A DNA stretch of 64,000 bases from Escherichia phage EPFV3-03/2025, in sequence record PV435126.1; one strand, given 5' to 3'. The notes beneath the pieces were generated by a model. It was given only the letters and a program-made list of their open reading frames with translations. It was not told the origin of the DNA and did no database searches. Both the position numbers and the translations under genes were made by a program. Shown here piece after piece: positions 374-45,379 of the stretch. The first letter of the stretch is position 1, and every line of letters starts with the position of its first letter.

Positions 374-391
374 TTTTTTAACTGAATTATC

Positions 392-416
392 AAGGGGCTT
401 AGGCCCCTTTCTTTTT
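392..416 (+). terminator. rho-independent terminator
   Basis: aaggggc/gcccctt stem with ttag loop followed by T-run, directly after the stop at 373. Confidence 0.6.
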
Positions 417-1167
417 GTCTGCTCTTCCCCATACCATAAACGGCCCTACCTGACAAGTGGAATAATTGACGAGCCATCAATCCCGCACACTGTACAAATA
501 TACATGTAAAATAGCTATTGCATAACCTTTCATTGTGTGGTAGCGGTGCTATTTTTACCCGTTTTCTCTCCCAAAATTGCACGTAATGCAGCTATTGCAC
601 AAAATTTAACCTGATGCACATCTTCAGTATACTGTCAACAATTAAAAATCTTTATAAGTCATACACTTACACAAACCAAAAAGCGTGTCCTACGTGAAAA
701 ATCGGGTGTAACTATAGCCGACAGATCTCAGAATCCACGTACAATCACCATTCTATAGCCTGCAAAGTATTTATTCCAACCACAGAATAACGGAATAGTC
801 AATACTTGTATAAAATAATTATTCGTGTAAACTGCATAACATAAATCTTCTCATGTGTCAACATTTTTCGTAAACAGTCCGAAATTGTCACGATAGGTTA
901 CTATAATCAGAGAAATCTTTAGTCGTCTAATGTTTACTGTACATAACTATACTGACTGGAATCATTAGATGACTAAGAGAAAGATAAGAAATAATTAACA
1001 ATGTAATTGTTTTATCTGCAACAATAAGGCAACTATGCAAACGAATGGCATGGCGCGACGGAGTCGCGACATAATATAAAAGCAGTAACCATCACCCCCG
1101 TGATAGTTTGTCTGCAATCTATTAATCAGATCATAGTTGCCTTGTATTTAGTTAATCATGACATAAC

Positions 1168-1207
1168 AAGCAGGGCAACTATAGATCTTCTAATAGTTGC
1201 CCTGCTT
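1168..1207. repeat. perfect 15-bp inverted repeat with 10-nt spacer
   Basis: aagcagggcaactat / atagttgccctgctt arms around agatcttcta; the GCAACTAT core recurs nearby in both orientations. Confidence 0.8.
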
Positions 1208-2938
1208 TTATATTATGTCATATATTATTAACTTGTCAATTGTCACCTTGCTAATTGTTTTCATGCAAACGAATGTCATGGCTTATCATCTCTGTGTAAA
1301 CTGTCAATGTGTAAACAGTCTACGCAGGAACAATCTATACGTGAACAGTGAAACATGAAATAATAACAGTCGTTATTGTGTCGAAAGTGTCGTATTGTGT
1401 GACATTGTGTCAGACAAGTTTTTCTCCTCTTTGTCAAGTGCTGCATGGAAAATTTACAATCTGGTATGGTAGCATTTTTGCGGCCCCGTTTACATGCATG
1501 AGTGTATGTATAATCCTTGTTGTGTGGGCGTTTAGACGTCTGGACGGTCAGAAGTCCGCAGGTTAATATCTAATCTATTGGTCGCTAACTATATCCACCA
1601 CAAATAATAAGAAATACAATTGTTATATTCGTAAACAGTAACCCATGTTATCAATCCCTGTATGTATCGCCAGTGGTGCGCATAATGGGTATTATGTTAA
1701 ATTGCCCGTAATGATAACGATTCTCACAATGATAAGTATTCTCATTCATCCACACAAAATAGCTTGCAAATGTTGTGCCACTGTGTGAACGGCCTCGCCT
1801 ATTAATTTGCCTCACTGCCCCGATATTTGAGAATTGTTATAAGAATGAGAAGTATTCCCATTCCGTCCGCCTGGCAGCACTCCAGTCGCTACCGGCTCCT
1901 GACAGGGTAGCACTCCTGTAGGACAAGCACAAAATCTGGGCATAACTGGACCTGTTCAGATATTTCTGGCTGACTCTTCAGGTCTGTGTGGGAAAAGCCA
2001 ACCTCTCCGGCGGGGCAGGGGGGGTCTGCATGGCAGATTTCACCTGGAGCGAAACCCTTAAGGGTAAGATGGGGTGGTATTACAGGAAAAATTGCAGGTC
2101 AATTAAAAAATTTACGTGGTGTATGAAGCCCTCTTCAGGCAGGGCGTGTATTATGGGATGAAACCCTCTTCAGGTGATGATATTTGTGGGTGTGATATTT
2201 GCTGGAAAGCCAGATATGACGGGGCTCCCGGCGGGGATGGGGTAGTACAGGCAGGGAAAATGTGGGGATGTGGTGTGGTAAATTGATCAGGCAGGTAGGA
2301 TATGGAATATGTTACAAGTATGTTAAATATGGAGGTAGGATATTTGTAAGATTTGTGTGTAAAATCAAATACTTATGTGGTGTTGTGGTATTTTCTATAA
2401 ATAATTCAAGTTTAATAGGTGATATTTGTCTCCATCTACTTTGTGTGGTAAACAGATTCTAATTGAATTGGTTTACAAGTGTATATAAAGTATACAAATT
2501 AAAGATATAAGAAACCCCCCTCCCCCCTTCGGCTACCATTCACCTTTTCCTCTGACTGGTACTTAAACACTTATTCAGACTCTTCAGGTTATCACCCATA
2601 TATCATATGGCAGTGACTGGTGTCCTCCGGCCCCTCTTTCGTCACCCGTCCGCTTCGCCATGCTAATGCCATAGCTAACTGTTCGGTTGTTCACCCTGTT
2701 CACTCAGGTGTATCTCCATACCCCTTCAAACCGAAGAGAACAGAAAACCCGAATTACTCGGTAAAAGAAAAGAGAAGAACTTAATTTTATCAGGATAGGC
2801 AAGAATGTCAAGGCATGACTGCTCACTAAACAAGCAAACAGTCATGTGTGGGAGGTAAGTGATTGTGGTGGTAGGAAATTTAGTTGAAAGATGTGTTATA
2901 GGTGCTTCCAGCACTTTAGCCTGGCAGCTAATTGTGTG

Positions 2939-3154
2939 TCAGTCCAGCGGTTCATCCTCTACTTCACTGAAATCAATGTTCATGGTCTCTTCCCAACCAT
3001 CGATCTCAGCACAAGAGTGGAGTTCTTTAGGGTTTACTCCCAAAGCCTCAGCAACAGAGTCTATATTTAACACCTCTGGCAGGTATGATTCATCGAATTC
3101 AAGGTAAATCAGGCCACGAGTGTTGTCAGCTCCACCAAATATTTCTATCTTCAT
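2939..3154 (-). CDS. hypothetical small acidic protein
   Basis: 71-aa ORF starting MKIEI; last gene of the minus-strand block. Confidence 0.45.
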   Translation of the reverse strand: MKIEIFGGADNTRGLIYLEFDESYLPEVLNIDSVAEALGVNPKELHSCAEIDGWEETMNIDFSEVEDEPLD

Positions 3155-3274
3155 AAAATCTCCTCTGGGAATGAGAGTGTGAACAGGATTATACGTTCCA
3201 ATGCACTGGAATTTATATACGTTTGCCTCTTCAGGCCATGCTTTAGCATGATAAACTTGTGTGGGCTCGGTGCT

Positions 3275-3610
3275 TCATAGTCTGCCACCTCTGAACTCTT
3301 CGTTCTCAGGCATGATAGAGAACCAGATGGCTATGATGTCCTCCCACGTCAGGTCATCAGCCTCAGGGTCCACCTGGGACGGAGATAGAGAATCCTCAGA
3401 ATTGAAGTTTTTCTCTGCGGTCGCTTCTTCAGATGTCTCTTTAGGTGCATGTGTGTTGGTCATGTTCCACCCGTGAGTATTCCGGCAACAGCCGCTATGG
3501 ACGTAATGATCATCAGGATCACCACCAAAACCTCGGACAATGTTTTCATTGCGTATTCCATATTCTTCAAACGATGTGAGGATACTATCACAGGAGCTGT
3601 AATGTGTCAA
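3275..3610 (-). CDS. hypothetical protein
   Basis: 111-aa ORF; start uncertain (a promoter-like motif overlaps the first codons). Confidence 0.4.
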   Translation of the reverse strand: MTHYSSCDSILTSFEEYGIRNENIVRGFGGDPDDHYVHSGCCRNTHGWNMTNTHAPKETSEEATAEKNFNSEDSLSPSQVDPEADDLTWEDIIAIWFSIMPENEEFRGGRL

Positions 3611-3771
3611 CAGAAACGCCGCGAGGGTTGGTTAAAATCCGAGCGTATGGTGATTTGGGTCAAAACGGACGTGCGTTCTCGCTACGCTCGAAATAGAGAG
3701 TTGTTTGTAAGCAGCTCTTAAACGCTCTGTAATGATATTAACTACCTAAGGTATGGAATCGTGCACCAGAT

Positions 3772-3797
3772 AAAGAAAAGGACGCCACAGAGCGTCC
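3772..3797 (-). terminator. rho-independent terminator (minus strand)
   Basis: ggacgc/gcgtcc hairpin with T-run on the minus strand, just downstream of the gene ending at 3823. Confidence 0.5.
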
Positions 3798-3822
3798 TAG
3801 GTGCCTTAAATTTGATATTTTG

Positions 3823-4134
3823 CTATACCCATGAGGGCTTGTCTAGGTTGGAGTAGCTGAAGGGGGTCAAAAGGTGACTGTCAAAATCTTTCAAACTGTC
3901 CAAGTCTTTTTCCTCGTCCTGACACCATCTGTGCCTGCATTTATTGTTGTAGTGCATGGAATGCATAGCGTTCTGCAACTTAACAGGTACAAGTGATTCA
4001 GGAGTAGATAGAATTGTTGGGTATGCCAGGACTATCTCAAACAATGGAAACACATCGAAACTGAAGTCTATTTCTGCTGAGGTTGCTGGCATATAGGAGT
4101 ATTTAGCTGTCGTTGTAGACATAATCCACCTCAC
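3823..4134 (-). CDS. hypothetical protein
   Basis: 103-aa ORF, abuts the next gene. Confidence 0.5.
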   Translation of the reverse strand: MRWIMSTTTAKYSYMPATSAEIDFSFDVFPLFEIVLAYPTILSTPESLVPVKLQNAMHSMHYNNKCRHRWCQDEEKDLDSLKDFDSHLLTPFSYSNLDKPSWV

Positions 4135-4510: not shown

Positions 4511-4816
4511 TTATTCTGCAGAGCGTTTGAACAGAATGTCTGCTTCAGACATGTGCTCAACCTCTTCTTCGATTTTAGCTCGACGTTTTTCAGCTTCGTA
4601 GCGGATATCGAATTCGGTAGCCACCAATGACTTGATAAACTTAGGAGAATACAGGTGATCCTGTTTCTCGACAAGAATAATATCCTTGATAGCGTCTTTC
4701 AGATCTTTAATCTGAAGCTGAAGTTCCACCAGCTCTTCAATTGTTTTACGGAGGCGATCACGCTCTGCAGTGTCAGAAGGCAGAGAGGTGAACAGTTCAA
4801 CTTTAGATTTAGCCAT
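4511..4816 (-). CDS. hypothetical coiled-coil protein
   Basis: 101-aa ORF rich in E/K/L heptad-like sequence. Confidence 0.55.
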   Translation of the reverse strand: MAKSKVELFTSLPSDTAERDRLRKTIEELVELQLQIKDLKDAIKDIILVEKQDHLYSPKFIKSLVATEFDIRYEAEKRRAKIEEEVEHMSEADILFKRSAE

Positions 4817-44566: not shown

Positions 44567-44641
44567 GCCCTGTTAGCTTAGTGGATAAAGCAGCGGCCTT
44601 CTAAGCCGTTGACACTGGTTCGAGTCCAGTACGGGGTGCCA
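44567..44641 (+). tRNA. tRNA-Arg (anticodon UCU)
   Basis: Cloverleaf by eye: acceptor gccctgt/acggggt, anticodon loop cttctaa, T-loop ttcgagt, encoded CCA. Confidence 0.75.
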
Positions 44642-44645
44642 AATT

Positions 44646-44732
44646 GGGGAGTTATCCCGTAGAGGTAGCGGTGTAGACTGTAAATCTATTGTCATTGCGA
44701 CTCGGGTGGTTCGACTCCACCACTCCCCACCA
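44646..44732 (+). tRNA. tRNA-Tyr (anticodon GUA)
   Basis: Acceptor ggggagt/actcccc, anticodon loop ctgtaaa, long variable arm, T-loop ttcgact, CCA. Confidence 0.75.
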
Positions 44733-44856
44733 AATTTATATTTTTAAATGCATAAATCATACAGATAATGACATTGATATTTATCGTCGTTTATACTAGT
44801 CACTAACTGCTCGAAAATCAGTGTCATTATCAGTGTAATTTATAAAGGAGGGTAGG

Positions 44857-44947
44857 GAGCAATGGTGCTCAAGCGGTCTTGAAAACCGTCCCGTTGAGGA
44901 TGACTCGATGATGGTTCGATTCCATTACTCTCCGCCACATTGTTGAC
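44857..44947 (+). tRNA. tRNA-Ser (anticodon UGA)
   Basis: Acceptor ggagggt/actctcc, anticodon stem-loop gcggt-cttgaaa-accgt, long variable arm, T-loop ttcgatt, CCA; exact 5' end uncertain. Confidence 0.6.
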
Positions 44948-45035
44948 CTTGTAATTAAGCGAAAGCCGGAAGCAGAACCGGATTATCAAATGTTACAGTC
45001 GTCATCGCCGACTAGCCACATGGTCAACATATTGC

Positions 45036-45134
45036 GCTAGGTAAGCCCTTTGGCAAGGGCGAGGATTTTTAATCCTGAAAATAGACGAGGTAGTCGTTGA
45101 ATACATAGGTGGTTCGATTCCATCACCTAGCACC
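45036..45134 (+). tRNA. atypical oversized tRNA-like element (about 99 nt; anticodon uncertain, loop candidate tttttaa)
   Basis: Perfect 7-bp acceptor pairing gctaggt/acctagc, D-arm gccc-tttggcaa-gggc, T-arm ggtgg-ttcgatt-ccatc, but about 30 nt between anticodon arm and T-arm. Confidence 0.4.
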
Positions 45135-45139
45135 TTTTT

Positions 45140-45215
45140 GCTGATGTAGCACAATTGGCAGTGCAATTGATTTGTAATCAATAGGTTGCAGGTTCGAGTC
45201 CTGCCATCAGCACCA
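45140..45215 (+). tRNA. tRNA-Thr (anticodon UGU)
   Basis: Acceptor gctgatg/catcagc, anticodon stem-loop attga-tttgtaa-tcaat, T-loop ttcgagt, CCA. Confidence 0.75.
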
Positions 45216-45216
45216 T

Positions 45217-45291
45217 GGCCCTGTAGCTGGAAGGTTCAAGCAAGCGACTCATAATCGCCAGACGGTGGTTCAATTCCACCCAGGGCCACCA
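45217..45291 (+). tRNA. tRNA-Met or Ile2 (anticodon CAU)
   Basis: Acceptor ggccctg/cagggcc, anticodon loop ctcataa, T-loop ttcaatt, CCA. Confidence 0.7.
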
Positions 45292-45303
45292 AATAATAAA
45301 TAC

Positions 45304-45379
45304 TCCGCGTAGCTCAGCTTGGTAGAGCGCCTGATTTGGGATCAGGAGGTCGAGTGTTCGAATCACTCCGTGGAGACCA
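45304..45379 (+). tRNA. tRNA-Pro (anticodon UGG)
   Basis: Acceptor ctccgcg/cgtggag with C1-G72, anticodon stem-loop cctga-tttggga-tcagg, T-loop ttcgaat, CCA. Confidence 0.7.

Follow-up and report, generated by a model that had tools for sequence, protein, structure and literature searches.

The chromosome ends of rV5-like myoviruses (genus Vequintavirus) have been described in separate publications. In the 2013 rV5 paper, a grey 'non-coding' box without open reading frames (ORFs) is drawn between convergent transcription units ending at genes 163 and 164; the box was given no function, and no bidirectional terminator was found there. Terminal redundancies of 458 bp were reported for EdH4 and HdK5 (Korf 2019), that of Gotham is 459 bp, and the other 2 kb of the locus have no assigned function. 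Two phages of other genera provide exact, read-mapped ends: PBES 02 has a 443-bp repeat (positions 200–642, right end mapped by PhageTerm) and KPP-1 a 514-bp repeat (PhageTerm call, T7-type), and each sits in a gene-free gap between convergent gene clusters. Here we analysed a 2.5-kb ORF-poor stretch, at about 400–2900 in a 64-kb window of Escherichia phage EPFV3-03/2025 (PV435126.1); all coordinates below are positions in this window. The locus is the known non-coding box of vequintaviruses holding their known terminal repeat, and its identity is thus not new. New are the exact mapping of the ends in this phage and a set of leads, as distinct from demonstrated functions, that sequence comparison suggests: a putative nick motif and edge homology across three genera, dyads and a motif arm shared between genera, and an ultra-conserved block with a predicted promoter. 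The nick motif, the cross-genus islands, the dyads and the ultra-conserved block find no mention in the available papers on the box and the repeat.

The stretch matches 121 phage records at ~86–96% identity, 97 of which cover at least 80% of it, and the matching records are nearly all Escherichia phages of the genus Vequintavirus. A protein-anchored scan of IMG/VR returned 3 loci only. Like the rV5 box, the stretch lacks ORFs, lies between convergent clusters and holds the same repeat. A first-pass annotation, made by a model from the letters of the window, had described a long gene-poor region between convergent transcription units, and both parts of this description hold. The stretch from 374 to 3274 (2901 nt) is the longest in the 64 kb without an ORF of at least 90 amino acids in any frame, the runner-up being the tRNA cluster with 1.3 kb; with a threshold of 75 amino acids, the ORF-free stretch is 583–2858. 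To its left, a + strand gene ends at 373 and is followed by a terminator at 392–417; to its right lies a − strand cluster whose first gene occupies 2939–3154, and the − strand carries every large ORF between 2939 and ~40.5 kb. The region is very probably the chromosome-end region of a Vequintavirus as it is written in a circular or concatemer map.

To place the ends, we compared database records and aligned 15 vequintavirus loci, the most divergent of which is L006. The features that define the ends are as follows.

1413–1871, unstranded: direct terminal repeat of 459 bp, present here in one copy (Gotham annotation and alignment, record ends, Korf 2019, indel-free alignment).
1408–1416, + strand: left cutting site TGTCA^GACA, with the putative nick between 1412 and 1413 (five record ends, conservation jump at 1413).
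1867–1876, − strand: right cutting site TGCCA^GGCG (GCC^TGGCA on the + strand), with the putative nick between 1872 and 1871 (bov11CS3, bov25_3, the end of the Gotham repeat, the CM1 junction).

The Gotham record annotates an identical 459-bp repeat_region at 1–459 and 136567–137025, and both copies align to 1413–1871. The same sequence is likewise found twice in ECP2309. After record-end positions were obtained by shifting BLAST query coordinates by the query start, Gotham, HdK5, ECP2309, YN3 and Pr121LW were found to end or start at 1413, and bov11CS3 and bov25_3 at 1871. At least seven records from several laboratories thus stop at one of two positions 459 bp apart. Consistent with a repeat that is single-copy in the concatemer, the sequence at its start occurs once in the window and, among the 60 listed of 119 matching records, is single-copy in all but four. 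The repeat aligns without indels in nearly all of the 119 records. Furthermore, pairwise identity among the 15 genomes does not exceed 0.42 over the 120 nt that precede 1413 and then rises to 0.94 from 1413 on. Collectively, these sequence comparisons establish 1413–1871 as a single copy of a 459-bp direct terminal repeat, in line with the 'packaging site or terminal repeat' that headed the candidates of the first-pass annotation.

Both edges are conserved within the genus and beyond it. None of the 15 genomes departs from TGTCA^GACAAG at the left edge, and at the right edge, GCC^TGGCAGCA, just two positions adjoining the cut vary. PBES 02 has the very same GCC^TGGCAGCA at its right end, and GTCCGYC^TRGCASC is common with KPP-1 when the latter is flipped. 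At the other edge, the three genera can be aligned over the initial ~26 nt of the repeat, a pyrimidine run followed by TGTCAAG. When read on the strand whose 5' end is created, all six ends fit a single motif, TGYYW^RRC.

Window: left end TGTCA^GAC, right end TGCCA^GGC.
PBES 02: left end TGCCT^GGC, right end TGCCA^GGC.
KPP-1: left end TGCTA^GAC, right end TGCTA^AAC.

The record ends and the Gotham annotation further indicate that packaged genomes, in the orientation of the window, start at 1413, proceed rightward through the entire genome and finish at 1871, which means that both adjoining gene clusters are transcribed toward the chromosome ends. Staggered nicks followed by 3' extension are the published scheme for short terminal repeats of the T7 type, and this scheme requires nicks on opposite strands at the same motif, one repeat-length apart. 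The symmetry of the two sites suggests such an arrangement here. Terminase would nick the + strand at 1412/1413 and the − strand at 1872/1871, each at 5'-TGYYW^RRC, and the 3' ends would then be extended through the repeat, so that each daughter genome gets a copy.

Features in common with T7 and T3 are thus fixed ends, a repeat some hundreds of bp long with one copy in the concatemer and, as we propose, staggered nicks with 3' extension. The differences are that the present phage is a ~137-kb myovirus using host RNA polymerase, that its repeat is three times longer and that non-coding DNA of ~1 kb flanks it on each side; T7 and T3 have no sequence similarity to the region, and the packaging chemistry proposed here is deduced from the sites. 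T7 has a promoter reading toward the junction and a secondary origin near its ends. It is also said, after Dunn and Studier, to carry short-repeat arrays on both sides of its repeat (SRL and SRR), which the variable array left of the present repeat resembles.

An alternative explanation is headful (pac-type) packaging, in which the genome would be circularly permuted and terminally redundant, with a pac site here, and submitters would have adopted the shared record ends from one another by convention. Several observations speak for it and, with them, against fixed ends. In the 2013 rV5 paper the genome is described as circularly permuted, and in a 2026 paper PhageTerm calls headful packaging with partial permutation for a vequintavirus, in the same genome in which CheckV found a terminal repeat. 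Most GenBank records also open at arbitrary points, which is nevertheless expected for repeat-ended phages because assemblers pick the first base at random. Further caution comes from the nick motif, which was derived from the same six ends that it describes and to which KPP-1 is the sole partial hold-out, and from the record of Shigella phage CM1, which suggests a left edge 64 nt further out. In addition, the termini given here rest on the record ends and annotations of others, on published statements and on sequence conservation. A headful mechanism is nonetheless hard to reconcile with records of several laboratories whose stops fall at two distinct, complementary positions with a spacing of exactly 459 bp. 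Nor does it agree with the annotation of the repeat at both ends of Gotham, with the 458 bp measured by Korf 2019, with a nick motif at the edges that recurs at the exact, read-mapped ends of phages in two other genera, or with conservation that changes exactly at the edge. Circular permutation or headful packaging is unlikely here, and we give the alternative as a whole very little credence.

The CM1 record (L011) has a tandem duplication of 523 bp at 3502–4024, corresponding to window positions ~1349–1871. Its first copy ends at the right repeat edge (...CGTCCGCC), after which the sequence resumes 64 nt outside the left edge; it looks as if the ends were joined in assembly, or as if CM1 had a longer repeat.

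Between these edges, the terminal repeat also contains conserved internal features.

1676–1702, unstranded: 27-nt island GTGCGCATAATGGGTATTATGTTAAAT (local alignments to the PBES 02 and KPP-1 repeats).
1712–1744, unstranded: two adjacent Fur-box-like dyads, TGATAA-N3-TTCTCA, 18 bp apart (weaker copies at 1828–1857).

The 27-nt island is the sole internal segment of the repeat that aligns across Vequintavirus, Certrevirus and Mydovirus, which makes it a candidate terminase-recognition site or promoter core. The dyads next to it resemble the Fur 7-1-7 box, TGATAATNATTATCA. The sites 1712–1726 and 1730–1744 have two mismatches each, matching 13 of the 15 consensus positions, and are the sole matches with at most two mismatches in the 64 kb. 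The half-sites show no change in 14 of the 15 genomes, L006 being the exception, while the centres vary. In the terminal gap of KPP-1 there are 5 Fur-box-like matches, against 0.13 expected, and that of PBES 02 has 13 that reach at least 14/19, where 0.2 would be expected; one of these, GATAATGATAATCATT, matches the consensus core at 16 of 16 positions. Fur-box-like dyads thus cluster in or beside the repeat in three genera of Vequintavirinae (L018, 5216–5958; L024 and L025, PBES 02).

One reading of these dyads, which would sit well with a chromosome-end region, is a landing pad, where host Fur, or a phage protein of similar specificity, would bind the repeat and regulate a repeat promoter or bend the DNA for terminase. 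DNA bending for terminase is the role of IHF at lambda cos, where an IHF site lies inside the packaging signal, and the two systems would have in common host-protein-like sites within such a signal, the present ones being predicted dyads. Fur boxes belong to enterobacterial iron regulons, and we know of no precedent for Fur at phage chromosome ends. That 64 kb contain just two close matches, side by side within the repeat, that their half-sites are kept as the centres drift and that the motif is enriched in both other terminal gaps argue for a landing pad. On the other hand, the motif is AT-rich and its enrichment across the window is modest (12 against 3.2), the Vequintavirus sites keep a fixed mismatch (TTCTCA, not TTATCA), and some PBES 02 copies lie outside the terminal gap. 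We hold the landing pad to be a rather doubtful possibility.

The similarity between genera continues to the right of the repeat.

1872–2514, + strand: right arm, with a variable repeat zone (1885–1960), a G-skewed one-strand motif array, an indel (2026–2096) and an AT-rich variable spacer (2408–2514).

The first-pass annotation had pointed to a G-rich section, and GC skew is indeed +0.3 to +0.6 over 2000–2500, followed by −0.37 over 2500–2700. Motifs confined to one strand of this arm are CTCTTCAGG (CTTCAGG; three copies), GATATTT (five copies) and CCGGCGGG (two copies), and a G7 run begins at 2018. The matching arm of PBES 02 and KPP-1 has the same strand skew and the same one-strand motifs, GATATTT and CTTCAGG among them; since skew and motifs are common to three genera, they appear tied to the chromosome end and are not genus-specific filler. 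In the packaged genome, the G-skewed motif array lies just inside the left chromosome end. PBES 02 and KPP-1 thus share with the present locus the gene-free convergent gap with its repeat, the TGYYW^RRC ends, the homologous first ~26 nt and right edge, the 27-nt island, the Fur-box-like dyads and the G-skewed arm. They differ in that their matching arm is just ~335 nt long, in that they are without the ultra-conserved block described below, and in that they are elsewhere unalignable.

Further observations concern the composition of the arm. Three of the four runs of at least six G or C in the 64 kb lie in the region, as G7 (2018–2024) and C6TC6 (2515–2527). The length of C6TC6 varies by one base between genomes, and KPP-1 has a similar C6TTC5 ~140 nt from its repeat. 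A 70-nt segment, 2026–2096, which includes the palindrome AAACCCTTAAGGGT, is found in this phage and L006 and is missing from the other 13 genomes. A T4-like late promoter, TATAAATA at 2396, and the rV5 late motif were also considered and set aside, as they showed no enrichment or positional logic.

Beyond the AT-rich spacer lies the most conserved part of the locus.

2515–2778, − strand: ultra-conserved block, a putative untranslated transcript of ~265 nt (pyrimidine tract at its start; G6AG6, then UUUCUU, at its end).
2784–2811, − strand: near-consensus sigma-70 promoter TTGACA-N16-TGaTAAAAT, reading leftward into the block (11 of 12 hexamer positions and an extended −10 TG).
2813–2843, unstranded: 8-bp inverted repeat CATGACTG...CAGTCATG, just upstream of the promoter (conserved; read from the sequence).

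Between 2531 and 2778, only 9 of 248 columns vary among the 15 genomes (0.036). For comparison, the variable fraction in the flanking genes is 0.14, 0.09 and 0.52 at first, second and third codon positions, respectively; the block is thus below even second positions, and Fisher P against third positions is 2e-41. The 117 full-length copies of the block in GenBank are all 97.8–99.6% identical. None of the 15 genomes lacks the promoter, and in the most divergent one its spacer has diverged and lengthened to 18 nt while the hexamers and the TG are kept. Sites of such promoter quality number 15 in the window, and the 13 outside the region are all co-oriented with their genes. The invariance spans the distance from the predicted start at ~2777 to the G6AG6-UUUCUU tract (2527–2508), and in the predicted fold the pyrimidine-rich 5' end pairs with the 3' G tract. 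We infer from these features that the block is an untranslated transcript, confined to Vequintavirus, that host RNA polymerase would make from the sigma-70 promoter. Candidate roles are a trans-acting RNA, a replication primer or R-loop, and a packaging or entry signal; the inverted repeat at 2813–2843 may serve as an operator or may terminate the − strand gene cluster.

In one specific version, compatible with a chromosome-end region, the block would specify a separate non-coding RNA, ~265 nt long, which acts in trans and whose ends pair; host RNA polymerase would synthesise it immediately on entry of this chromosome end into the cell. Such an RNA would account for a promoter kept in 15 of 15 genomes while its spacer drifts, for invariance that begins at the predicted start and stops at the G6AG6-UUUCUU tract, for constraint on every nucleotide beyond that of second codon positions, and for a fold in which the 3' end pairs with the 5' end. 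This version agrees as well with the substitutions that affect predicted pairs: five of six keep the pair on the − strand and one of three on the + strand, none of them double and all drawn from only nine variable columns. Other observations on the block must be set against this version and against the reading of the region in general. The fold is of ordinary stability (z about −1), the block has no clean hairpin terminator, and covariation in it is not measurable because there is almost no variation and no homolog outside the genus. Homologs outside the genus were not found by relaxed blastn against phages, by nhmmer against the KPP-1 terminal gap or by blastn against 5,426 E. coli genomes, and exact-word scans of IMG/VR and metagenomes for the block returned vequintavirus contigs only. 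With Rfam 15, the only hits above the gathering threshold in the window were the tRNAs at 44.5–45.4 kb, and with E-values up to 10 the hits in the region were at chance level, none of them in 2500–2800. Antisense targets within the window amount to two 12-mers, which is also chance level, and a targeted literature query found no transcriptome study of the genus. We judge such an RNA to be plausible, though somewhat short of an even prospect.

A second version, equally compatible with a chromosome-end region, makes the right arm an RNA-primed replication origin, in which transcripts from the promoter at 2811 would end in a G-run and leave a persistent RNA–DNA hybrid beside the AT-rich spacer at 2408–2514. 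Systems of this kind are ColE1 RNA II, the T7 origins and the mitochondrial CSB II region. The order of elements is the one that such an origin calls for: the promoter (2811–2784), a 250-nt invariant leader, G6AG6 (2527–2515 on the − strand, C6TC6 on the +) and then DNA of 26–35% GC (2300–2600). The concentration of the long G or C runs of the window in this region also fits. The replication proteins of rV5 are T7-like (Pol A polymerase, gp4-type primase-helicase), and the 2013 rV5 paper found no origin. However, the GC-skew changes of rV5 follow transcription direction according to the same paper, and PBES 02 and KPP-1 are without the block despite homologous replication genes. An origin here is the less probable of the two versions, and we consider it unlikely.

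We also considered whether the region consists of decayed or unrecognised genes, having lost coding sequences or encoding small proteins or micro-ORFs. Some observations do suggest this: some GenBank entries call many small 'hypothetical proteins' here, the ORFs in the invariant block stay open, and one of them, 2584–2703 (−), has GGAG 10 nt upstream of a GTG start. Yet the ORFs in the block are open only because nothing varies there. The block has one variable third position, against ~20 expected, and its variable patch changes amino acids. Outside the block, the ORFs 1348–1566 and 2262–2462, which the first-pass annotation had flagged as possible conserved proteins, are each intact in 1 of the 15 genomes, and the others in 3–8, as against 14–15 for the flanking genes. 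Six ORFs of the region, these two included, had no match in Pfam or PHROGs, and variation among the 15 genomes is not concentrated at synonymous positions in the region. The micro-ORFs that had been listed among the candidates thus found no support. Nor do relatives have ordinary genes at this locus: among the best-matching records listed of the 121, most are without annotation under the match and a few carry small 'hypothetical proteins', and the rV5 box was itself called 'non-coding'. Since, moreover, the gap exists in three genera, we regard an explanation by genes as exceedingly improbable.

The non-coding DNA on the left completes the chromosome-end region.

392–417, + strand: intrinsic terminator closing the left (+ strand) gene cluster (GC-rich 7-bp stem, then a T-run; terminator in the Alma, Murica and Gotham records).
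430–1126, unstranded: non-coding left arm, C-skewed on the + strand, with 1029–1126 especially conserved (pairwise identity 0.86–0.98; no ORF conserved).
1026–1282, unstranded: hairpin and dyad cluster (four GGCAACTAT / ATAGTTGCC sites at 1028, 1133, 1174 and 1193, an inverted repeat, a hairpin with a T-run, two dyad 20-mers).
1290–1412, + strand: hypervariable short direct-repeat array of GTRAACAGT units, then ATTGTGTC / ATTATGTCA units (ATTRTGTC), abutting the left repeat edge.

The first-pass annotation had asked whether the region is conserved or variable, and comparison with related genomes gave a divided answer, the arms and the repeat being conserved and the zones touching the repeat variable. 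Variable columns make up 25% of the left arm (430–1126), 22% of the repeat and 25% of 2097–2407, and 49–76% of the indel-rich zones that touch the repeat. In the left array, copy number varies between genomes, and pairwise identity falls to 0.15–0.42 with many indels. We take the flanks to be functional because 22–25% of their columns vary, against 52% of third codon positions, because they contain enriched, strand-specific motifs, and because two other genera have the same arm features. The ~1 kb on each side of the repeat would then be non-coding cis-acting and regulatory DNA, not decayed genes.

The repeated motifs reported from the window alone were recovered with counts well above expectation, as scaled from the density in the rest of the window. 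TGTCAA occurs 6 times in the region, against 1.7 expected, and not once as TTGACA on the + strand. The gtaaacag-type motif GTAAACAG occurs four times and nowhere else in the window, and the degenerate form GTRAACAG 6 times, against 0.2 expected (~30-fold). Two further enriched motifs had gone unmentioned, CTCTTCAGG with four copies (P ~3e-5) and GATATTTG with five (P ~1e-9). What had been described as a duplicated 18-mer is in fact a 20-mer, ATGCAAACGAATG[G/T]CATGGC, at 1035 and 1263. It forms a dyad, CATGC-N9-GCATG, and both copies are kept in relatives although the surroundings of the second are hypervariable. The hairpins were likewise borne out, as a perfect 15-bp stem at 1168–1207, followed by a T-run and given as a terminator in the Alma and Murica records, and as an 18-nt inverted repeat (1068–1085 / 1202–1219). 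Folding z-scores are −5 to −9 across 1100–1260 and unremarkable in the remaining region.

GC-rich hairpin-forming inserts come and go to the left of the repeat in the 15 loci, at 1164/1165 and 1223. One, of 33 nt, is present in rV5, LL12 and A147, and the other, of ~33 nt (AAACACCCGAAGGGGTGACCAAAGGTCACC...), in 8 of the 15 genomes. A second near-consensus sigma-70 promoter, TTGACA-N16-TGaCATAAT (1239–1212, − strand), faces the hairpin cluster. As a general feature, this promoter with a possible 128-nt small RNA ending at the 1108–1087 hairpin was rejected, given that the −35 element occurs in this phage only; conservation of its extended −10 is explained by the 18-nt inverted repeat, which contains it.

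An ORF-free zone of kilobase scale near a chromosome end is also a feature of T5, whose terminal repeat is ~10 kb long and gene-bearing; the zone contains repeats and palindromes and an injection stop signal. The likeness is one of layout, both zones being ORF-free and rich in repeats and palindromes near a chromosome end. To our knowledge, two-step DNA transfer is not known for vequintaviruses.

Several observations were made beside the main subjects. Nineteen GenBank records named 'Campylobacter phage' (UNVERIFIED), including L016 (MG065644), match 400–2940 at ~87–94%; their own taxonomy line reads Vequintavirus, and they are probably mislabelled or contaminant phages. A tRNA/tmRNA scan found none in the region. 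Elsewhere in the window, within the seven-tRNA cluster at 44567–45379, ARAGORN calls a 99-nt 'tRNA-???' with a four-base anticodon (atcc) at 45036–45134, which scores only 35.5 bits with Rfam. A DsbA-like 'transcriptional regulator' (4511–4816, − strand) is 99–100% identical as a protein in more than 110 vequintaviruses, its DNA varying at the usual rate, and has 42–60% identity to relatives in other genera. The KPP-1 homolog is 36 kb from the repeat, and the gene is for this reason unusable as a synteny anchor.

Vequintaviruses are widely used in phage-therapy and biocontrol cocktails, and most of their ~120 GenBank records open arbitrarily, with this region unannotated or filled with spurious small ORFs. 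Positions 1413 and 1871 as physical ends, together with the putative TGYYW^RRC mark in three genera, would permit consistent genome orientation and correct annotation. For engineers, the map separates non-coding DNA that is probably essential in cis from DNA into which insertions can be made safely. The conservation of the block points to an essential element. Tentatively, and with the odds against it, the block may be a new genus-specific phage RNA, either immediate-early and trans-acting or an R-loop primer, with its promoter 1.1–1.4 kb from the chromosome end, while Fur or a mimic of it may be recruited to the repeat across Vequintavirinae, tying packaging or end-proximal transcription to host iron status. 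The locus as a whole offers a compact system in which to study how exact terminal repeats are formed in a large myovirus.

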